Source: Ignavibacteriota bacterium (GTDB taxonomy: Bacteria > Bacteroidota > Ignavibacteria > Ignavibacteriales > Melioribacteraceae). Taken from it: a stretch of 64,000 bases of DNA. A model generated the notes under the pieces. It worked only from the letters and a program-made list of their open reading frames with translations, ran no database searches and had not been told where the DNA came from. Positions within the stretch are counted from its first letter, which is position 1. The number at the start of each line of letters is the position of its first letter. Shown here piece after piece: positions 50,642 to 60,832 of this stretch. A program made the position numbers and the translations under genes. The stretch spans positions 1,422 to 65,421 of the forward strand of contig PAAX01000001.1 in assembly GCA_002698995.1 (NCBI GenBank). The letters are read 5' to 3'.

Positions 50642-50995
50642 ATGATGAAAATTAAAATTTACCACAAACCGACTTGTTCAACAAGTAGAAAAGCTTTGAA
50701 AATGCTTGAAGAAAATAATTCCGATTTTGAAATAGTGAAATATTATGAAGAACGGTTCACAAAAAATAAGCTTAAAACTCTATTAAAAAAAATGAATTTA
50801 GAGCCTTCCGATTTATTAAGAAAAAAAGAAAAAGCTTATAAGGATTTGGATTTTAAGAATCAGAACTATACTAAAGATCAGATTATAGAATTTATGGTAG
50901 AAAATCCAGATTTGATTGAAAGACCAATCATAGAAATAGGGGAAAAAGCAGTATTAGGCAGACCTTTAGAAAACGTAGCAAACTTTATAAAGTAA
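50642..50995 (+). CDS. ArsC/Spx family protein
   Basis: IYHKPTCSTSRKA N-terminus and ERPII near the C-terminus. Confidence 0.85.
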   Translation: MMKIKIYHKPTCSTSRKALKMLEENNSDFEIVKYYEERFTKNKLKTLLKKMNLEPSDLLRKKEKAYKDLDFKNQNYTKDQIIEFMVENPDLIERPIIEIGEKAVLGRPLENVANFIK

Positions 50996-51070
50996 AAAGC
51001 TAAACTAATTCGGAAAATAATCGATAATTGATTTGGTAAAGGATTACACTATAATCTTCATGGACGAAGA

Positions 51071-52921
51071 ATGGCAAATGCAGATCCACATATTCTTGTA
51101 AGAGAATTTGATGAAGAATATCTTCAGCGCGAACTGCTGAATTCGAAGTTCAGAAATTTTGCTAAAGAAAAGTTTCTGAATTTAATTCAGTTTGATGTTG
51201 ATTATATTGATTTTCTTCGGAGAATTTCGATCCAAGAAGCATTTAAACTTCCAATTGAGTTAAATGATTATCAAATAAGAATTGATACGGCTCCATTATT
51301 TTGGCTTTCCGACGCCAATATTTTGGAAAAAGCCGAAGAACTTTTTTTGAATAAAAACAAACGTGTATCAATTGTAAGTGATTATAGTGAAATCAAAAAA
51401 TTCTATTCAAAATGGATCACTCAAAAATCTGAAAAAGAAAAACAGTTTTTTGCCCTTTCCACAATTAATCTAATTGAACGAAACTCTAATGATCTTAATT
51501 TTTTGAAGCATATACTTGCGGCGGTTGTATTTTCATTTGATAAAAGAATTTATGCACCGGATAAGTCAATTGAATTATTAACCAAGAGTGAAGAGAAAAT
51601 TGAAAAATCAAAACTTACCGATGAACTGAAAAATGAATTTTCTTATTTGACAAATCTCTATAAGGGATTTGTAAATTTAAGATCTGAGAGAATAGAAGAA
51701 GCAGCACAAAATTTTGATTTTGCACAGACATTTAAGAACAACGGCGTTTCGGCTAAACTTTATAAGGCAATTACTGAAAATAGATTTAGCAATTATGAAA
51801 ATGCAGTTCAACTGATAAGTGAAATTATTGATTACGATAAAAACAGATTAAACTTTGCGATTGAAAATAATCATCTGCCATTATATAAATACTTTTTAGA
51901 ATCTGCCGCCATCTATAATGTATTTACCGAGTATGAATTTTCATCACTTTATTATGAACTTGAGAATCTTTTTACAGCAGCATTCTTTGGAGAAGATAAA
52001 AAGATTCTTGAACTCAACTTGATGCTGGATAGGTTAAGTGAATTAAAAATTAATGATTACCTCAATGATCAGATTAATAAGAAACGACTCTTCTTGGGAG
52101 AATTCATTAAAAATTACGGTGAGAATAAAAATATTTTAATCACAGATTCATCCTTAAAATTAATAGAGAAATTTGAATCAATAATTGAAGATGTCAAAGA
52201 ATCAATTACTAAAAAGTTTTATGAAGGTGTAGCAGAAGAAATTCGAGTCTTCGATTATACAATGCAGGAAAATCTAAGATCGATTGAATATCTTAAAAAG
52301 GAAAAGGAAGAAGTTAAATCGAAAGTTGGAACCAGGTATAATTTGGCAATTAAAAATCTGGAAGAAAATTATACCGAGACTTTAAAAATACTTGAATATA
52401 AAGTAGAAGGAATTGATTCCAACAAAAATTTAGATCCCTCAAATGCATTTAATAATGCAATGATTTACAATCTGATTATCTCCATGTTAGTATTTATTTT
52501 CGGTGGATTTGCAGGTGCTTTTATTGATAACGGCGGAAGCATGGACGGATTTGCAGCTTTCTTTAGTCAAACTATGCTTTCAGGTTTAAAGTGGGGCGGA
52601 ATTGCTTTTGTTCTTGGCTCAATGATTTCAATCTTTTCTACTGTTTCTGCAGTTTGGGAAAGAGCAAATGAAAAGCAGAGAATTTTAAGACAGATAGCTT
52701 ACTTGAAAAATCAAAAGGAAAGAGAAGTAGATGCATTAAGAAAAGAATCCGATCAGAAAATAGCTTCTTTAATGGAAACTTATGAAGAAAGAATGGAAGA
52801 TTATTTAGAAGCCAATAAATCACTTCAGGAAGATAAAACTAAAAAGTATCAAGAATATAAATTAGAAGCCGATCAGAAAATTGAAAAACTTCATAATAAA
52901 TTAAACGAGATTTTACACTAA
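51071..52921 (+). CDS. Hypothetical protein with two or three TM helices and coiled-coil flanks
   Basis: 616-aa ORF. Hydrophobic stretch at about aa 455-530. No catalytic motif recognised. Confidence 0.6.
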   Translation: MANADPHILVREFDEEYLQRELLNSKFRNFAKEKFLNLIQFDVDYIDFLRRISIQEAFKLPIELNDYQIRIDTAPLFWLSDANILEKAEELFLNKNKRVSIVSDYSEIKKFYSKWITQKSEKEKQFFALSTINLIERNSNDLNFLKHILAAVVFSFDKRIYAPDKSIELLTKSEEKIEKSKLTDELKNEFSYLTNLYKGFVNLRSERIEEAAQNFDFAQTFKNNGVSAKLYKAITENRFSNYENAVQLISEIIDYDKNRLNFAIENNHLPLYKYFLESAAIYNVFTEYEFSSLYYELENLFTAAFFGEDKKILELNLMLDRLSELKINDYLNDQINKKRLFLGEFIKNYGENKNILITDSSLKLIEKFESIIEDVKESITKKFYEGVAEEIRVFDYTMQENLRSIEYLKKEKEEVKSKVGTRYNLAIKNLEENYTETLKILEYKVEGIDSNKNLDPSNAFNNAMIYNLIISMLVFIFGGFAGAFIDNGGSMDGFAAFFSQTMLSGLKWGGIAFVLGSMISIFSTVSAVWERANEKQRILRQIAYLKNQKEREVDALRKESDQKIASLMETYEERMEDYLEANKSLQEDKTKKYQEYKLEADQKIEKLHNKLNEILH

Positions 52922-52934
52922 TAATATTTTTCCT

Positions 52935-53347
52935 ATGTCATTCCAGCCAAAGTGTCTGCCATGCCGCAGGCAATCCGGAATCTCAAAAACAGTATTTCAA
53001 GCAATCTAACTCAAAAAAGCTACGAGGTTTTGTCCAATGGACTCCCTTCTGGAAAAAACTTCGGAGGTTTGCAGTAATATGTAGGGGACAAAATCCGCCT
53101 CGGCGGATCGTCCCCCACAACTGATTAATACTAATTCGATGTAAAATATTGTAGGGACAACTCATGAGTTGTCCCTACTTAAATTCCAGCACACTTATAT
53201 TCTAATTTGTCCATGATTACTGTTAAATCAATAATTTCAAAAACCTCAGAAGTTTGTATGTCAACCATCAGCTCTGATAAAATTAAAAAGTGAGCATAAT
53301 ACCTAAAATCATAATCGTAGAGTCGTTGCGTGCAACGACTTTCCTAC
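52935..53347. repeat. Cluster of heterogeneous short palindromic (REP-like) modules
   Basis: GTCATTCC...GGAATC module carrying a nested insert (52937-52985). Nested hairpin GTAGGGGAC/ATCCGCC-tc-GGCGGAT/GTCCCCCAC (53081-53118). Perfect 28-nt palindrome GTAGGGACAACTCATGAGTTGTCCCTAC (53151-53178). Degenerate GTAGAGTCGTTGC-g-TGCAACGACT (53317-53347). Confidence 0.85.
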
Positions 53348-53419
53348 TCCATAATTAATGGAATTTTTTCTATTAATAATTTTAGCTAGTTTTATATTAA
53401 TTGATTTACGAGACTAGCT

Positions 53420-53863
53420 ATGACATTTCGCAAATATCTTATCTTAATACTTTTATTTACCATTTTATTTTCTTGTACAGATGAAAAAGGGGACAAAAAT
53501 ATTGTCGGTCCATGTATTCATGAATATAAAGAAGCGGTTTTTCACGTTACGTCTGTAAGAGATACAGTTAATGATTCTTTTATAAATTTTGTGAAAATAA
53601 AAAATCTCAAAATTGATGGAGTTGTTCAAAACAACTTTTGGATTACCGGAAATTCTTATTCAATAGCTGTAAGTGATTCTGTTATTTATTGCAATGTCCC
53701 ATTTGGATTTGGATATATGAACGGAACTTATGAATTCACATTAGAAGCTCCGGGTTATGCACCCAAAAATTTTGTAATTACAGATGTTGAATATTCAATC
53801 AACGAAGGGGGCTGTCCATCATACAGTAACGGCGGTAAAAGAGTTCAGTTAGTAATTAATTGA
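53420..53863 (+). CDS. Small lipoprotein, function unknown
   Basis: Signal peptide with lipobox LFSC. 147 aa. Confidence 0.6.
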   Translation: MTFRKYLILILLFTILFSCTDEKGDKNIVGPCIHEYKEAVFHVTSVRDTVNDSFINFVKIKNLKIDGVVQNNFWITGNSYSIAVSDSVIYCNVPFGFGYMNGTYEFTLEAPGYAPKNFVITDVEYSINEGGCPSYSNGGKRVQLVIN

Positions 53864-54137: not shown

Positions 54138-54617
54138 ATGCCTGAAGATAATCGTATTGCTATCCAAATACCGGAAGCAGATGTTACCGAAATTAATGCC
54201 GCAATTGAAACACTTAAAACAAAATTGCAGCCTTATCTTATTGCTCTAACCCCTGAAGATAGAAAGATGCTCCCCAAAATGAGTGATAAAACAATTCCTT
54301 TTGTTGATAAAGCTTTAGATTATGCTCAAAATTCTCCTCAATTTGCACCGCAGTATATGAATGTACCTGAAATGAAAATTGATCTTGATGCATTAAATAC
54401 ATTAACCGAATTTTATCGTCCTTTAGAGCAGATTATTTCAGGATTTGATGATACTATGATGCTTAGCGGAAGTGAAGCTTATATTGCCGCTCTTTCGTAT
54501 TATAATTCAGTTAAAATGGCTGCTAAAATGAATGTTCCTGCAGCAAAACCTATTTATGATGATCTTAAAGAAAGATTTAATAGAAAATCCAAAACCGCAG
54601 TTTCACCGGATTCATAA
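54138..54617 (+). CDS. Hypothetical protein
   Basis: SD-like AAGGAGG 7 nt upstream of the ATG. 159 aa, helical, no motif recognised. Confidence 0.65.
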   Translation: MPEDNRIAIQIPEADVTEINAAIETLKTKLQPYLIALTPEDRKMLPKMSDKTIPFVDKALDYAQNSPQFAPQYMNVPEMKIDLDALNTLTEFYRPLEQIISGFDDTMMLSGSEAYIAALSYYNSVKMAAKMNVPAAKPIYDDLKERFNRKSKTAVSPDS

Positions 54618-54660: not shown

Positions 54661-55035
54661 AAAACCTCCGAGGTTTATTCCCGAAGGGAGTCCTTTGGAC
54701 AAAACCTCGGAGGTTTGCAGATTGTAGGGACAACTCATGAGTTGTCCCTACAGTAATAGCAGTACAATCAATTTTGGAAATCAATAATTGAAAAAACTAT
54801 TCAAAGGCTGTCACGGTCGCACCGTGACAGAGCAAGGAACAGTTCTAAAGTGAAATACCGATTCCGTCATGGTACGACCATGACGGCCATGGAAATGACT
54901 CATGTCATTCCGGCCGAAGTGCCGGAATCTTAAATGATAATATTGAATAGATTTCCAATAACGTAGGGACAACTCATGAGTTGTCCCTACAGTAATAGCA
55001 GTTCAATCAATTTTGGAAATCATTTAATGAAAAAA
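54661..55035. repeat. Cluster of palindromic modules including a ~75-bp internal direct repeat
   Basis: AAACCTCNGAGGTTT at 54662-54676 and 54702-54716. The 28-nt palindrome at 54724-54751 and 54963-54990, each followed by the same AGTAATAGCAGTnCAATCAATTTTGGAAATCA tail. CTGTCACGGT-cgc-ACCGTGACAG at 54808-54830. CCGTCATGGT-acg-ACCATGACGG at 54864-54886. ATTCCGGC-cgaagt-GCCGGAAT at 54907-54928. Confidence 0.9.
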
Positions 55036-55134
55036 CTACTATTGATTATTTTCTTGTGTTAATACTTGTTTAATTCAGAGAAAATAAAACCCAACGAATT
55101 ATCTCAATAATCAACAGTGCATTATAACCCCATC

Positions 55135-55344
55135 ATAAAGAATCTAATTTTATTCAAAAAGAATCAAAAGCGATTAAAAAAGAGTCGGCATTGATATAAA
55201 AAGAATCAAAGCTGAGTAAAAAAGAGTCAATGTTGATATAAAAAGAATCAAAATTGATTATAAATGAGACAAATTTGGGACAAAAAGAATCAAGCTTGAT
55301 TAAAAAAGAATCAACGTTGACTAAAAAAGAATCTAAATTGATTC
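55135..55344. repeat. Tandem array of 21-bp units, consensus AAAAAGAATCAAnnnTTGATTA (9 in-phase units plus one degenerate leading unit)
   Basis: Units start at 55156, 55177, 55198, 55219, 55240, 55261 (degenerate), 55282, 55303 and 55324. Each has an internal dyad, for example AATCAAGCTTGATT, TCAACGTTGA and GAATCtaaatTGATTC. Stop codons occur in all three plus-strand frames. Confidence 0.9.
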
Positions 55345-55436
55345 TTTTAAGTGGGAGGGGGTACTTCCGAAGTGGGGTGGGGTACTTCTTTAAAGCAGAT
55401 TTTAGACTTTTAGAAACTAGACATAAGATTCTGTAT

Positions 55437-55768
55437 AAAACCTCGGAGGTTTGCAGTACAATATATAGGGGACGAATCCGCCGCAGCGGATCGTCCCCTA
55501 CAACTGATAATATTGAATAGATATTAAATGTTGTAGGGACAAGTCGCGACTTGTCCCTACTTTATTTACATTAAAAGGCTGTCACGGTTGCACCGTGATA
55601 GAGCAAGTATCAGTTCTCATGTGAAATAAAGATTCCGTCATGGTACGACCATGACGGCAATGGAATGGAAATAATTATCAATATTGTAGAGCCGTTGCAT
55701 GCAACGGCTCTACAGCATCTGAAAACCTCCGAGGTTTAGAAAACCTCGGAGGTTTGCTTGAAGCAAGC
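55437..55768. repeat. Cluster of palindromic modules upstream of the type IIG gene
   Basis: AAACCTCGGAGGTTT at 55438-55452. TAGGGGACGAATCCGC-cgca-GCGGATCGTCCCCTA at 55466-55500. GTAGGGACAAGTCGCGACTTGTCCCTAC at 55533-55560. CTGTCACGGT-tgc-ACCGTGATAG at 55579-55601. CCGTCATGGT-acg-ACCATGACGG at 55635-55657. GTAGAGCCGTTGCATGCAACGGCTCTAC at 55686-55713. AAACCTCnGAGGTTT at 55723-55737 and 55741-55755. Confidence 0.9.
55574..55757 (+). repeat. Left copy of the ~180-bp direct repeat flanking the type IIG/DUF559 cassette
   Basis: Aligns with 60301-60479 at roughly 90% identity by eye (about 14 mismatches plus one 5-nt indel). Confidence 0.85.
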
Positions 55769-55887
55769 TTGAATCTCAAAAGTAAATAATAAAGGAATCT
55801 AACATTGCAAACAACATTTTTACTTTTAACTCAATTCTATTATTTTAGTCTTCAATAATTGCTACTAATTGAACGACGGATACCTTA

Positions 55888-58800
55888 GTGATTCTTAAAA
55901 AACTTACACCAAAAGCTGCATTAAACAAAGCTTATCAAAAAATAAAACCTCTCCGAAACGAATTTGAAAATTTCAAAACAGAACTCAACATTTTTATTAA
56001 TTCAATTAATGTTGATGAATCGGAAGAATACAATAAAAAGCTTATTGCTAATTTTTTTGAGAAAACATTTTATTCGGAAAATAATGTTAATACTAAGGGG
56101 AGAACCGATTTAGCTATATATCTTGGTAAATCTGCTAAAGATAAAGTTGGGGTTATTACCGAAGTTAAACATCCTAATAATTCAAGCGAAATGGTTAAAC
56201 AGAATAACCTAAATACAAAAGCGATGCATGAGGTTATCCGTTATTATCTTAATGAAAGAATTGATGAAAAAAATGACGAATTAAAATCTATTGTAATTAC
56301 CAACCTTTATGAATGGTTTATTTTTGATGCTCAAACTTTTGAGAGAATTTTCTTTAAGGATACTGAGCTTAAAAAAGATTACTTAAGCTGGAAAAACAAT
56401 AAAAAAGTAAGCAGCAATACAGATCATTTTTATAATGAAATTGCAAAACCTTTTCTGGAAAAATTAAAGACTGAAATTGAGTTTGTGCATTTTAATCTGA
56501 GTGATTATGATTTTAAGGAGGAGAAGAAACTTATACCTCTCTTTAAAATTTTTTCTAAACCGCATTTAATTAAAGAAACATTTGCCAACGACAGCAACAC
56601 ATTAAACAAACCTTTTTATCAAGAACTGCTTCATATAATTGGATTGGAAGAAGTAAAAGAGGGGAGTAAAAAGATTATCCGCCGTAAAGATGAAACGCAG
56701 CGTTATTCCGGTTCCCTTCTCGAAAATACAATCACAATTCTTAAATCAAAAGATTCCGATCTTTACTTTAACGATAAGGAAAAATACGGCACAACAAGGG
56801 ATGAACAGCTTTTTAATATTGCTCTTGAACTAAACATAACATGGATTAACAGAATTCTATTTCTAAAACTGCTTGAGGCTCAATTAGTAAATTATAATAA
56901 AGGGGATAAATCACATAAGTTCTTAGATTCTTCCCTCATTAAAGATTTTGATATTCTGAGAGAATTATTTCATGAAGTATTGGCAGTTAAAGAAGATGAA
57001 AGAAGTAAGGATATTCTTCCTCAGTTTAATAATGTCCCTTATCTAAACAGTTCACTTTTTGATATAAGCACGCTTGAACGAAAAACAATTGATATAAGCG
57101 GATTAAAAGACCGTTACAAAATTCCCTATTACAGCGGAACCGTTCTAAAAGGGAGTGATTCAAAAAGATTAAATGGTGAGATTTCCACTCTTAAATATCT
57201 TCTCGATTTTTTGGATGCTTACGATTTTTCAACCGAAAGTACCGGTGATGATATTCAAGAAGAAAATAAATCACTTATTAATGCTTCTGTTTTAGGAAGA
57301 ATATTCGAAAAAATTAATGGTTACAAAGAAGGCTCTATTTTTACTCCCGGATTTATTACAATGTATATGAGCCGCGAAACTATACGCCGTGCGGTTGTTC
57401 AAAAGTTTAATGATCATTTAAAAACCTCTTACAAAGACTTTAACGATCTTAAAAAAGAAATTGATATTGATGCCGAAGGGAGAAAAAAAGCAAACCATAT
57501 AATAAACTCATTAAAAATATGCGATCCGGCTGTGGGCTCAGGGCATTTTCTGGTTTCTGCTCTTAATGAAATTATTGCGGTAAAATCCGAATTGAAAGTT
57601 TTAAGCTACCGCGATGGAAGCAGAATACAGCAGTATAAGGTTGAGATTGAGAACGATGAGCTTATTGTTACCAACGTTGAAACCGATGAAATTTTTGATT
57701 ATCACCTTAGCGATAAAGGGAATATTATAGACGAACTTCAAAAAGTGCAGGAAGCTCTTTTTCATGAAAAGGAAACCATAATTGAAAACTGCTTATTTGG
57801 TGTTGATATAAATCCTAACTCGGTTAATATATGCAGACTAAGGCTTTGGATTGAGCTTCTTAAAAATGCTTACTATGACCTCACCCCCAGCCCCTCTCCT
57901 AAATTAGGAGAGGGGAGGGTGAGGTCCTTACAGACTTTGCCCAATATTGATATTAATATTAAACAGGGTAATTCTTTAATAAGCAGATTTGCTCTTGATG
58001 TTGATCTTAAAAAGGCTCTTAAAACTTTTAGATATACTATTGATGATTATAAAAATTTTGTTGCGGGTTATCGTAATGCTAAAACTAAAGAGGAGAAGAG
58101 AAACTTTGCCAGGTTTATTGAGGATATTAAAAAGAATTTTAGAACAGAAATTAATGCTAATGATCCCAGACGTAAAAAGCTTAATGATCTAAGCTACGAG
58201 CTCCATACTAAATTTGAATCCGATAGACTTATTGAAGTTGAACTTTCCGAAGCAGATAAAAAGAAAACGGCTAAGGAAAAAGAAAAACTTGTTAAACAAA
58301 TTGATAAGTTATCGGATGAACTTAAATCCGAAGAGACAGGAGAAATTTATAGAAATGCTTTTGAATGGCGTTTCGAATTTCCGGAAGTGCTTGACGATGA
58401 TGGGAATTTTATCGGCTTCGATGTTGTGATTGGAAATCCGCCGTATATAAGATTTCAAGAAATCAATGATATAAATAAAATCCTATCAAACTATTTTCGT
58501 GAGCAATATATGGTTGCAAATAAAGGAAATTATGATATTTATGTTATTTTTATTGAAAAAAGCATGCAACTAATTCGATCAAATGGGTTTGTAGATTTTA
58601 TAGTTCCTAATAAATTCATGAATGCAAATTATGGTGAAAGTTTAAGAAATATGATTACTTCAAGTCAATCACTTTCAAGAATTGTAGATTTTGGAGAGCT
58701 TCAAGTATTTGATGAAGCTACAATTTACACATGTTTACTAAGACTCAGTAAGAATTGTAGAACATTTAATTATCTGAGAATCGCAAGTATTAAAGATTTA

Positions 58801-59730
58801 AGGCATAGTTTACCTCTTAAATATGAAAAAAGAGAGACAATAAAACTTATTAATAAAGAGTGGAATATTAATAAATTAGAATTAGATGCCCTTTTTATTA
58901 AAATGCAAAATGGTACCATTCCACTTAAAGAGATTACTAAAATTTTTGTTGGAATACAGACAAGTGCTGATCCAGTTTATATTGTAAGGTCAAATAAAGG
59001 AAAGTTCTATTCGAAGTCTCTGAATAATTATTGTCAACTAAATAATGAAATTTTAAGACCAGTATTAAAGGGTAGTGATATTAAAAGATTCTTTTTTAAT
59101 GAAACTACTCAATTTGTCATTATGCCTTATATAGTTGAAAATAATGAAGTAAGCTTAATGCAAGAAAAAGATTTTAATAAAAATTATACAGCCACATTCG
59201 AATATTTAGGACAGAATAAGAGTAAACTTCTGAAAAGAGCAGAAGTTGATATCAATTGTTGGTGGCATTATCCATTTCCTAAAAATATTAAAGAGATGTT
59301 TCAACCAAAAATTATTACTGGAGTTTTAGCAAATAAAGCATCTTTTAATTTTGATTCTGATGGAAAATACACTTTTGTTGGTGGCGGTAATGCTGGTGGT
59401 TATGGGTTAATTTTAATAGATACTTCTTTTAGTTACAAATATCTTGTAGGTTTATTGAATTCTCAGCTTATAGATTTATTCATAAAATCTGGTTCAACAA
59501 AGTTTAGAGGCGGGTATTATTCATATGCAAAAAGGTTTATTGAAAACACTCCGATTAAAAAACCAACCCAAAAACAAGAATCCCAAATCACCGGAATAGT
59601 AGAAAAAATAATAGAGAAGAAGAAAGAGAATCCGGAAGCAGATACAAAGGCAGAAGAGAAGGAAATAGATAGATTGGTTTATGAGTTGTATGGGTTAACG
59701 GAGGAGGAGATAAAGATTGTGGAAGGGTGA
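55888..59730 (+). CDS. Type IIG (Eco57I/MmeI-like) bifunctional restriction endonuclease / N6-adenine methyltransferase
   Basis: N-terminal PD-ExK (GRTDLAIY...VITEVKHP). Motif I CDPAVGSGHFLV and motif IV VIGNPPYI. TaqI-C-like specificity region (IFVGIQTSADPVY, LVGLLNSQLIDLF). Typical tail LVYELYGLTEEEIKIVEG. GTG start taken from the ORF track, so the start is uncertain. Confidence 0.88.
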   Translation: MILKKLTPKAALNKAYQKIKPLRNEFENFKTELNIFINSINVDESEEYNKKLIANFFEKTFYSENNVNTKGRTDLAIYLGKSAKDKVGVITEVKHPNNSSEMVKQNNLNTKAMHEVIRYYLNERIDEKNDELKSIVITNLYEWFIFDAQTFERIFFKDTELKKDYLSWKNNKKVSSNTDHFYNEIAKPFLEKLKTEIEFVHFNLSDYDFKEEKKLIPLFKIFSKPHLIKETFANDSNTLNKPFYQELLHIIGLEEVKEGSKKIIRRKDETQRYSGSLLENTITILKSKDSDLYFNDKEKYGTTRDEQLFNIALELNITWINRILFLKLLEAQLVNYNKGDKSHKFLDSSLIKDFDILRELFHEVLAVKEDERSKDILPQFNNVPYLNSSLFDISTLERKTIDISGLKDRYKIPYYSGTVLKGSDSKRLNGEISTLKYLLDFLDAYDFSTESTGDDIQEENKSLINASVLGRIFEKINGYKEGSIFTPGFITMYMSRETIRRAVVQKFNDHLKTSYKDFNDLKKEIDIDAEGRKKANHIINSLKICDPAVGSGHFLVSALNEIIAVKSELKVLSYRDGSRIQQYKVEIENDELIVTNVETDEIFDYHLSDKGNIIDELQKVQEALFHEKETIIENCLFGVDINPNSVNICRLRLWIELLKNAYYDLTPSPSPKLGEGRVRSLQTLPNIDINIKQGNSLISRFALDVDLKKALKTFRYTIDDYKNFVAGYRNAKTKEEKRNFARFIEDIKKNFRTEINANDPRRKKLNDLSYELHTKFESDRLIEVELSEADKKKTAKEKEKLVKQIDKLSDELKSEETGEIYRNAFEWRFEFPEVLDDDGNFIGFDVVIGNPPYIRFQEINDINKILSNYFREQYMVANKGNYDIYVIFIEKSMQLIRSNGFVDFIVPNKFMNANYGESLRNMITSSQSLSRIVDFGELQVFDEATIYTCLLRLSKNCRTFNYLRIASIKDLRHSLPLKYEKRETIKLINKEWNINKLELDALFIKMQNGTIPLKEITKIFVGIQTSADPVYIVRSNKGKFYSKSLNNYCQLNNEILRPVLKGSDIKRFFFNETTQFVIMPYIVENNEVSLMQEKDFNKNYTATFEYLGQNKSKLLKRAEVDINCWWHYPFPKNIKEMFQPKIITGVLANKASFNFDSDGKYTFVGGGNAGGYGLILIDTSFSYKYLVGLLNSQLIDLFIKSGSTKFRGGYYSYAKRFIENTPIKKPTQKQESQITGIVEKIIEKKKENPEADTKAEEKEIDRLVYELYGLTEEEIKIVEG
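57877..57926. mobile_element. 50-nt GC-rich palindromic mini-element inserted in frame in the type IIG gene
   Basis: GACCTCACCC-ccag-CCCCTCTCCTAA-a-TTAGGAGAGGGG-a-GGGTGAGGTC. About 62% G+C by my count. It encodes DLTPSPSPKLGEGRVRS. The same termini occur in the intergenic copy at 59729-59868. Confidence 0.75.
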
Positions 59731-59868
59731 CCTCTCCCTAAATCCCTCTCCTAAAATTAGGAGAGGGACTTTTAAAATTTGGATTGACTTTTGGGAATTT
59801 GATAGATTTTTTTATTGTAATCCATCTCCACCCCTCTCCGTGTAAGGAGAGGGGCCGGGGGTGAGGTC
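59729..59868. mobile_element. ~140-nt MITE-like element with terminal inverted repeats related to the in-gene mini-element
   Basis: Left end GACCTCTCCCTAAATCCCTCTCCTAA. The reverse complement of the right end is GACCTCACCCCCGGCCCCTCTCC. Internal hairpins at 59744-59767 and 59831-59854. Its first two bases are the GA of the type IIG TGA stop codon. Confidence 0.6.
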
Positions 59869-59915
59869 GAGAAGACGCAGAGTTAAAACAAACACTAAAA
59901 CAAACACAAACACCA

Positions 59916-60287
59916 ATGTCAAAACATTTCAACAGACCGGAGCAAAAACCGATACGGAGAAAATTACGTAGGGAACAAACCTACACAGAAAAAGTAGTCT
60001 GGATGCAAGTAAGAAACCGCCGTCTTATGGGAATAAAATTCAAAAGACAATACTCAGTAGATCAATACATAATAGATTTTTACGCCCCCGATATAAAAGT
60101 AGCATTAGAAATTGACGGTGACATTCATGAACTTCCGGAAGTAAAAGAAAATGATGAAATAAGACAAAAGCACATAGAACAATTTGGCATTCAGTTCATA
60201 AGATTAACAAACGAAGAAATATTAGGGAATCCGAACAAAGCCTTTACAAAACTTGAAAAGAAATTAAAAGAAATAATAAGTCAGTAG
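59916..60287 (+). CDS. DUF559 (Vsr-like) endonuclease domain protein
   Basis: TEKVVW..VRNRRL.G.KFKRQ...YIIDFY.P....ALEIDGD.H ... D..R...... G...IRL.N.E is the typical DUF559 pattern. Confidence 0.85.
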   Translation: MSKHFNRPEQKPIRRKLRREQTYTEKVVWMQVRNRRLMGIKFKRQYSVDQYIIDFYAPDIKVALEIDGDIHELPEVKENDEIRQKHIEQFGIQFIRLTNEEILGNPNKAFTKLEKKLKEIISQ

Positions 60288-60300
60288 AGAATTACTATTC

Positions 60301-60479
60301 AAAGGCTTTTACGGTGGCACCGAAATAGAGCAAGTATCAGTTCTCAAGTGAAGTAACGATTCCGTCATGGTACGACCATGACGGCAATAGAAATAATTAT
60401 CAATATCGTAGAGCCGTTGCATGCAACGGCTCTATAGCATTTAAAAACCTCCAAGGTTTAGAAAACCTCGGAGGTTTGC
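60301..60479 (+). repeat. Right copy of the ~180-bp direct repeat
   Basis: See 55574-55757. It contains CCGTCATGGT-acg-ACCATGACGG (60362-60384) and GTAGAGCCGTTGCATGCAACGGCTCTAT (60408-60435). Confidence 0.85.
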
Positions 60480-60484
60480 AGATT

Positions 60485-60787
60485 GTAGGGACAACTCATG
60501 AGTTGTCCCTACTCTAATGCAGCAATAATTTTAAAAACCTCATGGATTGTTTTAAACAGTCCGGGAATCTCAAAACAAATCTGTTTGGAGATACCGGTAT
60601 TCAGCAAGTCTGAAACCGGTATGACAGCAAGAATCTAATCTGTGTCATTTCAAAAGCTGTCACGGTCGCACCGTGACAGAACCAGTTTTAGCTTCCAAGT
60701 GAAGTAATGATTCCGTCATGGTACGCCCATGACTGCAATAGAAATGGATATTAAATGTTGTAGGGACAAGTCGCGACTTGTCCCTAC
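60485..60787. repeat. Further palindromic modules between convergent genes
   Basis: 28-nt palindrome GTAGGGACAACTCATGAGTTGTCCCTAC at 60485-60512. ATACCGGT...ACCGGTAT at 60591-60622. CTGTCACGGT-cgc-ACCGTGACAG at 60657-60679. A degenerate CCGTCATGG module at 60713-60735. GTAGGGACAAGTCGCGACTTGTCCCTAC at 60760-60787. Confidence 0.9.
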
Positions 60788-60832
60788 TTTATAAATTTTA
60801 ATTGGTATTATACTACAGACATAATAATTATG

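Follow-up and report, generated by a model that had tools for sequence, protein, structure and literature searches.

Two kinds of described system stand closest to the locus reported here: repetitive extragenic palindromes (REPs), which form bacterial interspersed mosaic elements (BIMEs) and have REP-associated tyrosine transposases (RAYTs), and restriction-modification (R-M) genes flanked by direct repeats. The locus belongs to both kinds. It lies in a 64,000-nucleotide stretch (the window; C6:1422-65421) of G000 (GCA_002698995.1), a marine Melioribacteraceae-like metagenome-assembled genome (MAG) of 4.23 Mb in 36 contigs with 31.9% G+C, and consists of a type IIG R-M gene and a DUF559 gene, together termed the cassette, bracketed by two direct copies of a repeat that we call X. 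An initial annotation of the window had proposed that the cassette was inserted, or can be excised, by recombination between these repeats. We find that X appears to be a BIME-like mosaic, made of REPs that come from three or more families, and, with moderate confidence, we read the X pair as what one old insertion or duplication by recombination left behind in a hot spot dense in REPs, with the cassette as cargo and not an autonomous element.

The REP/BIME-RAYT systems, or "REPtrons" (Nunvar 2010, PMC2817692; Bertels & Rainey 2011, PMC3116915; and Di Nocera 2013, PMC3733652), are characterized by short palindromes with GTAG or CGTC heads that occur in many intergenic copies and in mosaics, and what defines them is a RAYT gene with its own REPs on either side (PMC2817692). 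The modules found here are likewise short perfect palindromes with such heads and stand clustered in mosaics, and the likeness extends to RAYT-like genes flanked by the same palindromes, a doublet forming a hairpin similar to that of REPINs (REP doublets forming hairpins) and some copies lying in frame inside genes. The differences are that the host belongs to the Ignavibacteriales and is not a proteobacterium, that copies are few (2-70 per family), that no transposase was identified for modules A, B and C and that the mosaics return as long direct repeats on both sides of gene modules.

Furuta et al. described R-M units inserted with long target duplications and, as a third class, "chance insertions between repeated sequences" (PMC2853133). 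The cassette resembles the former in being an R-M unit shorter than 20 kb, with direct repeats longer than 30 bp that in full form occur only twice in the genome and no linked integrase or transposase: restriction and modification functions reside in a single type IIG chain, within 4.5 kb between repeats of 186 and 191 nt. Alongside this likeness, the specificity domain of the enzyme undergoes allelic replacement between strains here. The locus differs in that the defining single-copy empty site was sought in relatives and not found, and in that the repeats are 11% diverged mosaics of genome-wide families, which form a separate class in PMC2853133.

A recombinase linked to att-like repeats, as in site-specific integrative elements, was not found on contig C6. 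None of the 16 tyrosine-integrase matches (PF00589) lies on it and Pfam returned none on the neighboring genes. The initial annotation had seen no recombinase in the window; the RAYT-like enzymes for two of the REP families are encoded on other contigs. Integron cassette arrays are comparable in having co-oriented small accessory genes with structured direct repeats between them, but the repeats of this locus are strings of short perfect palindromes rather than long imperfect attC hairpins, and some of the modules belong to RAYT genes. With no attC-like long hairpins and no integrase on the contig, the integron reading was set aside.

Repeat X and its module families

The two copies of X had been described as ~180-bp repeats, about 90% alike with one 5-nt indel, and this proved accurate: they are identical at 171 of 192 positions (89.1%) with a single 5-nt gap, and their longest identical run is 31 nt. 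The modules follow the same order in both, A, B, C, D, D, again as first described, and their spacing is also equal. Hairpin A (GTCACGG..., GTCACGGTnGCACCGTGA), hairpin B (beginning CCGTCATGG, CCGTCATGGTACGACCATGACGG) and palindrome C (beginning GTAGAGCCGTTGC, GTAGAGCCGTTGCATGCAACGGCTCTAC) are followed by two units of module D (AAACCTCnGAGGTTT), which pair with each other as one 15-bp hairpin. Hairpin A shows one compensatory change (C-G to T-A) between the two copies. Folded as single-stranded DNA, the left copy reached -51.2 kcal/mol (z-score relative to shuffled sequences, -10.6) and the right copy -39.8 kcal/mol (z-score, -7.9). A search against Rfam returned only chance matches below threshold, and a terminator and promoter scan gave sites no more frequent than in shuffles, with none in X on the plus strand except at hairpin E', which lies outside X. 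The 45-nt block that had been seen to recur beyond the cassette was recovered as a somewhat longer one, comprising a linker and E', with 54 of 59 positions identical and an identical run of 46 nt.

All five modules stand together in this arrangement at just two places in the 4.23-Mb genome, so that random placement cannot account for the bracket. The possibility raised at the outset, that the repeat might be so abundant that flanking by two copies is expected by chance, can be dismissed on the same count. Every module of X is nonetheless a member of a dispersed family. We counted 7 copies of A, 3-4 of B, 44 exact copies of D (69 with up to 2 mismatches) and, for the further module E found next to X, 21 exact copies and 25 with mismatches; C is confined to 2 loci, with both X copies and one diverged copy at 53316 being the only occurrences in the whole genome. 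These copy numbers (2-69) are far below the more than 100 typical of proteobacteria, and the modules are clustered, often at contig ends. The ~100-nt A-B unit is present in four copies within 6 kb (starting at 54796, 55567, 60294 and 60645), and about four weaker copies are found on C12, C24, C29 and C31, often at contig ends.

The heads of the palindromes could be read directly as GTAGAGCCGTTGC... for C, GTAGGGACAA...CTAC for E and C-CGTC-ATGG... for B. According to PMC3733652, GTAG- and CGTC-headed palindromes constitute two REP superfamilies, the CGTC type being without a known transposase. The modules agree with this description in being short (20-40 nt) palindromes with a GTAG or CGTC head, and depart from it in part, since the head is expected to be unpaired and here sits within the stem.

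A genome scan for Y1 transposases (PF01797) gave four places. A RAYT-like open reading frame (ORF) of 171 aa on C31 has module E (GTAGGGACAACTCATGAGTTGTCCCTAC) on both sides, another of 205 aa on C20 has D-D doublets on both sides, and a third on C10 is flanked by a different GTAG palindrome. All three score above the Pfam Y1_Tnp cut-off, and for each the best NCBIfam match was NF047646, REP-associated tyrosine transposase (REP_Tyr_transpos), with 64.7 (C31), 68.4 (C20) and 82.5 (C10) bits relative to a cut-off of 80. The scan found no RAYT flanked by A, B or C. The arrangement of an HUH-Y1 gene between cognate REPs is present for E (C31) and D-D (C20), and these flanking positions around predicted transposase genes show E and D-D to be REPs. 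X is read as a REP mosaic because E and D-D each flank a RAYT gene elsewhere in the genome, the two genes lying on contigs other than that of the cassette. Module E was also observed in frame, as VGTTHELSLQ, both within the C31 RAYT-like ORF that it flanks (L050:1643-1670) and within a 512-aa secreted-protein ORF (C24:193587-195125).

Variation of the locus between strains

Contigs of the same population were collected by exact-protein look-ups with the flanking MscS-like and 159-aa proteins, giving 45 contigs from Tara, ENA and Logan assemblies, all of them (45/45) 100% identical to the window. The presence of such contigs in Tara Oceans metagenomes indicates a marine host, and window coordinates above 64000 were read from one of them, Tara contig L027. 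Close relatives were reached via the 90%-identity cluster of the 147-aa protein encoded to the left of the cassette. Tex of G000 shares 70-74% identity with the Tex proteins of Melioribacter and of named Melioribacteraceae MAGs. Relatives at 70-74% amino acid identity (L051, L058, L059, L060 and L062) had lost synteny on both sides of the region and had no REP modules in common with it, and 40 family- and order-level genomes were too distant for comparison, with a best flank identity of 38% and no synteny.

Within the population, three distinct contigs that extend past the left X run into the R-M gene and five that extend past the right X run into DUF559, the remaining contigs ending inside the repeats; all eight informative contigs keep the cassette. 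Contig L046, in which a 63-nt exact repeat links 54719 to C15:201515, was discounted, being most likely a chimera produced in assembly.

The cassette is missing from one conspecific genome and from two sister-species contigs. The conspecific genome, L073 (GCA_019912485.1), is 97.6% identical to the window over 50987-53863; there, the 147-aa gene is followed by ~300 nt and then by cheW (window-equivalent start, ~68393), so that 14.5 kb is missing, from 53864 to ~68392. The ~300-nt joint retains a 52-nt remnant from the 3' end of DUF559, identical at 43 of 52 positions and aligning with a score of 59, where random comparisons averaged 21.5 and peaked at 33; also present are a single D unit and an insertion of the IS256 family (L073:3174-4400) in a CTTTAAAA site. 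This site, equivalent to ~68392, is the right edge of the window-specific 12.8-14.5-kb segment, and the same IS256-family element, with identical ends, is present in G000 at C2:92429-93550. A supposed remnant of the R-M upstream region in L073 was dropped on finding its score within the random range.

The sister-species contigs, L075 and L079 (Joint Genome Institute [JGI] metagenomes; 88.5-94% identical to the window), carry in order genes for a 616-aa protein, a 147-aa-like protein, a histidine kinase and the 159-aa protein, followed by a tandem array, modules D, F and E', ~100 nt and cheW. They lack window positions ~55562-68392 (12.8 kb), which hold X, the R-M gene, DUF559, the second X, E, module G, an A-B unit, E' and a block encoding the MscS-like, a 1695-aa and a CN-hydrolase protein. 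Homology of these contigs to the window runs up to the outer edge of the left X and stops exactly there. In these relatives, D, E and F occupy homologous places; A, B and C are present at none of the three cassette-less loci (L073, L075 and L079). For the sister-species spacer, a supposed match to window 60518-60555 was rejected because its score did not leave the random range. The empty site with a single X copy that had been predicted was thus not found among these relatives, all three of which lack X altogether and 8-10 kb more. Variant strain L068 (98.9% and 96.7% over two matching stretches) keeps the R-M gene and DUF559 with X on both sides, its contig ending in module C at both ends.

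Smaller differences were resolved to single modules. L072 is 99.0% identical over window 64000-60648 and then, going leftwards from the MscS-like gene, has E', one mosaic A-B unit and directly the 3' end of DUF559; the 351 nt (C-D-D, E and G) that part the second and third A-B units in the window are absent, which shows a deletion or fusion between two direct A-B units. In L069, L070 and L071 (99.4% over 55627-58450), DUF559 breaks off near codon 61, at the edge of an A-B unit to which it is joined. L075 and L079 carry one E-tail block in place of the E-tail, A-B, G, linker and E-tail of the window, a filled-versus-single pair of the same X-Y-X topology as the cassette. Together, these comparisons show a locus that varies between strains, breakpoints at module edges and two small filled-versus-single cases.

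The pattern is genome-wide: in ~90 cases, two repeats at least 100 nt long stand on the same contig no more than 20 kb apart, all but one pair in direct orientation. Such pairs enclose HigB-HigA (203 nt, 94.6%; C17:57076-58345), a HEPN-nucleotidyltransferase pair with its neighbors and an IrrE-like peptidase (215 nt, 89.8%; C26:24523-31290) and a Type ISP-like R-M gene (C15:201172-201515 and 207307-207897), and also paralogous lipoprotein genes and housekeeping genes. A 560-aa protein inside one direct pair we take to be formate-tetrahydrofolate ligase. The repeats around the Type ISP-like R-M, HigBA and HEPN-MNT modules measure 120-340 nt and are built of hairpin modules.

The cassette and its surroundings

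The initial annotation had listed only a type IIG gene, an element resembling a miniature inverted-repeat transposable element and a DUF559 gene between the repeats, and we found the same three: the 1280-aa gene, a 140-nt double-hairpin element and the 123-aa DUF559 gene (Table 1). The 1280-aa protein matched PADLOC REase_MTase_IIG over its full length with 890 bits and Pfam DUF7149, DUF7814, Eco57I and TaqI_C, and GNPPY is invariant in an alignment with homologues (A2). Its predicted architecture is that of a type IIG enzyme, one polypeptide in which a gamma-class N6-adenine methylase (NPPY) stands between an N-terminal nuclease region and a specificity domain at the C terminus. Two other alleles, from other metagenomes (L068; L069-L071), have different sequence in place of the specificity region, 58451-59578; they share a left breakpoint at 58450, resume at ~59580 and are 98.9-99.4% identical over the remainder of the gene, an apparent allelic swap of the target-recognition domain between strains. 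Three independent assemblies (L030, L031 and L032) end exactly at 56904, inside the R-M gene, and this shared end may be an assembly-graph branch arising from co-existing alleles.

A check of 55888-60287 for deviating G+C content and codon usage, as had been proposed, revealed none, and the cassette looks native. Its G+C content is 0.315, compared with 0.319 for the genome, the third-position G+C of the R-M gene is 0.24, compared with 0.238 for the conserved 616-aa gene, and its tetranucleotide distance falls at the 72nd percentile of equal-size genome windows. Plasmid and phage collections contained no match to the cassette.

The 140-nt element is single copy in the genome, and the two-tier hairpin in the methylase loop of the R-M gene belongs to the same family as both of its arms. 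These hairpins (57877-57927 and 59729-59870) match the BoxC/PIT/TMECO consensus, CCCTCNCCC-N-GGGNGAGGG-N3-GGGNGAGGG, with at most one mismatch per block (Holder 2015, PMC4666352). Four such hairpins occur in the genome, three of them in the cassette and one on C4. The C4 copy (C4:13795-13827) is read in frame as part of a 792-aa ORF, with a tyrosine-integrase gene on either side (C4:11241 and C4:14552). The R-M homologue of genome G035 (L063:3835-7896, minus strand), which is 47% identical in alignment A2 and up to 56% over matched stretches, carries a complete in-frame DUF559 domain (98 bits, aa 696-798) at the position of the hairpin loop of the window, between WIELLKNAYY and LQTLPNIDINIK, with similar hairpins (CCCCTCC/GGAGGGG) flanking it. 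In contrast to this arrangement, DUF559 in the window is a separate gene downstream of the R-M gene, and a solo hairpin is all that the loop contains. DUF559 was also found in 1 of the 120 best R-M homologues (P0125). The two arrangements suggest that DUF559 and hairpin form a mobile unit, of which the solo hairpin would be a footprint or a non-autonomous derivative. The cassette is a composite of the R-M gene and a DUF559/BoxC element, the latter unrelated to the flanking REP mosaic.

Table 1. Features of the bracketed R-M locus, in window coordinates
Feature	Position	Strand	Remarks
D-F-E composite REP cluster, first copy	53047..53190	+	second copy 55429-55570, 82-83% identical
E hairpin + 48-nt tail, copy 1	54724..54799	+	76-nt direct repeat, 95%
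A-B unit, non-flanking copy (CGTC-tagged REP pair)	54796..54896	+	
E hairpin + tail, copy 2 of 76-nt direct repeat	54963..55038	+	
Outer block, left copy (linker + E' hairpin GTAGGGACAAGTCGCGACTTGTCCCTAC)	55516..55574	+	sister-species homology stops ~55561
Mosaic repeat X, left copy	55567..55757	+	hairpins A, B, C, D-D; 191 nt
Type IIG restriction enzyme-methyltransferase, 1280 aa	55888..59730	+	PADLOC, Pfam
Two-tier hairpin, 51 nt, perfect, BoxC/TMECO-like	57877..57927	+	in frame in methylase loop as DLTPSPSPKLGEGRVRS
140-nt element between R-M stop codon and DUF559	59729..59870	+	two CCCTCTCC/GGAGAGGG hairpins, complementary ends
Free-standing DUF559 (Vsr-like PD-(D/E)xK) gene, 123 aa	59916..60287	+	
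Mosaic repeat X, right copy	60294..60479	+	186 nt; begins 6 nt past DUF559 stop codon; A hairpin degenerate
E hairpin (REP belonging to the C31 RAYT gene)	60485..60512	.	
Third A-B unit near cassette	60645..60745	+	80-81% to others; fused with second unit in strain L072
Outer block, right copy (linker + E')	60743..60801	+	

Other composites of the same modules are duplicated around the cassette. The D-F-E pair encloses the genes for the 147-aa and 159-aa proteins, the 76-nt E-tail pair encloses one A-B unit and module G, and a D-GCAGATT-E composite overlapping X is found at 54701 and again at 60462, 96% identical. A tandem array at 55116-55363, with a 21-nt period and a 42-nt super-period, has kept its position in L075 and L079 and partly in L059, and at least eight further arrays with 41-42-nt periods occur in the genome (C10, C15, C23, C24, C25, C31 and C34). 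The 159-aa gene (54138-54617) has an 82%-identical paralogue (L061:7031-7510; C18:95033-95509 in G000) that adjoins a defense islet with a SocA/Panacea antitoxin, a PemK/MazF toxin and a 1153-aa N6_Mtase/Eco57I protein; both copies lie ~1.3 kb from an Eco57I-family gene.

Origin of the bracket

Next, we considered how the X pair may have come to flank the cassette. In the reading favored here, the interval between the conserved 147-aa lipoprotein gene and cheW is a REP-dense, strain-variable hot spot, whose DNA would be gained, lost and duplicated via recombination at shared REP modules. X itself, built of CGTC-type A and B, GTAG-type C and the REPIN-like D-D hairpin, would have been doubled by the same process, either through homologous recombination between direct copies or through an insertion that duplicated the adjoining module. 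The recombination was probably mediated by the host rather than by a RAYT. We ascribe the pair to a single event because five modules from at least three families, standing in the same order, cannot come from separate REP insertions. Recombination of X by X, for which the 31-nt identical run is available, could still delete the cassette; this product was not seen. The initial proposal is supported in part: the cassette lies in strain-variable DNA, the joints fall at module edges and L072 shows the A-B event; the expected single-X empty site did not materialize, and the cassette-less loci have lost 12.8-14.5 kb and not 4.7 kb.

Several observations weigh against this reading. None of the comparators represents the state just before or just after the duplication of X, and its link to the arrival of the cassette is one that we infer. 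In L073 the DUF559 remnant is followed by D without A-B-C, so that X may post-date the cassette. Homologous recombination is inefficient at 81-89% identity. Two of the three RAYT-like ORFs (C31 and C20) fall below the NCBIfam cut-off. The A-B units of the flanking copies are 86.3% identical to each other and 86.3% and 87.1% identical to the non-flanking copy at 54796, and such equidistance fits old or independent origins as well as it fits a single duplication. The C-D-D part alone is distinctly closer between the flanking copies (94.4%).

The alternative nearest to the initial proposal is that the cassette is a true mobile unit, which came in by Campbell-type integration or with a long target duplication and can exit by X-by-X recombination. 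In its favor, the full X occurs just twice in the genome and exactly encloses the two genes, R-M genes with long direct repeats and single-copy empty sites are documented (PMC2853133), the E-tail block 800 bp away offers the same X-Y-X topology with a single-copy comparator, and L068 retains both X copies. We nevertheless consider it unlikely, since the one-X empty site was not found, the cassette-less genomes miss 12.8-14.5 kb and have none of A, B and C, and all eight informative population contigs carry the cassette; the 11% divergence of the X copies, their A-B units being equidistant from a third, the absence of any foreign sign in composition and the lack of plasmid or phage matches point the same way. 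That the X copies were instead seeded or copied independently of the R-M genes, by local proliferation of REP clusters or gene conversion between neighbors, and flank them by chance, as in the third class of Furuta et al. (PMC2853133), seems improbable to us. It would explain why a 6-kb stretch holds four of the roughly eight A-B units, why the overlapping composites D-E, E-tail, D-F-E and linker-E' are each duplicated locally and why direct pairs enclose housekeeping genes too, and the equidistant A-B copies and the L073 joint agree with it; yet the shared order and spacing of five modules from at least three hairpin families, including the near-unique C, argue that X was copied as one block, and what RAYT-type transposition moves is a single REP or REPIN and not a mosaic of 190 nt (PMC3116915). 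Finally, X might be a functional cis element, such as a terminator, mRNA stabilizer or insulator, kept by selection on both sides of the R-M operon. Its four very stable hairpins and the compensatory change in hairpin A are compatible with such a role, and REPs are described as stabilizing upstream mRNA in PMC3733652, but predicted terminators were at the level of shuffles with none in X on the plus strand, no Rfam family was matched, hairpin A is degenerate in the right copy and X is missing from the loci of relatives and so is not conserved, all of which makes this explanation very improbable.

Because the same few hairpin modules border two R-M genes, HigBA, HEPN-MNT and lipoprotein paralogues, one may go further than the single scar favored here and picture the REP mosaics as portable homology "joints" at which host recombination swaps defense cassettes between strains, in the manner of an integron without an integrase; we offer this as speculation and think it rather unlikely.

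If the X pair is indeed a recombination scar in a hot spot rich in REPs, an R-M cassette bracketed by direct repeats need not be a dedicated mobile element and can be a side effect of REP/BIME mosaics. The arrangement of modules E and D-D around RAYT-like genes extends REP-RAYT systems to a marine Ignavibacteriales lineage. With natural strain pairs whose joints lie at the edges of REP modules, REP-driven change in gene content becomes testable within one population, given long reads.

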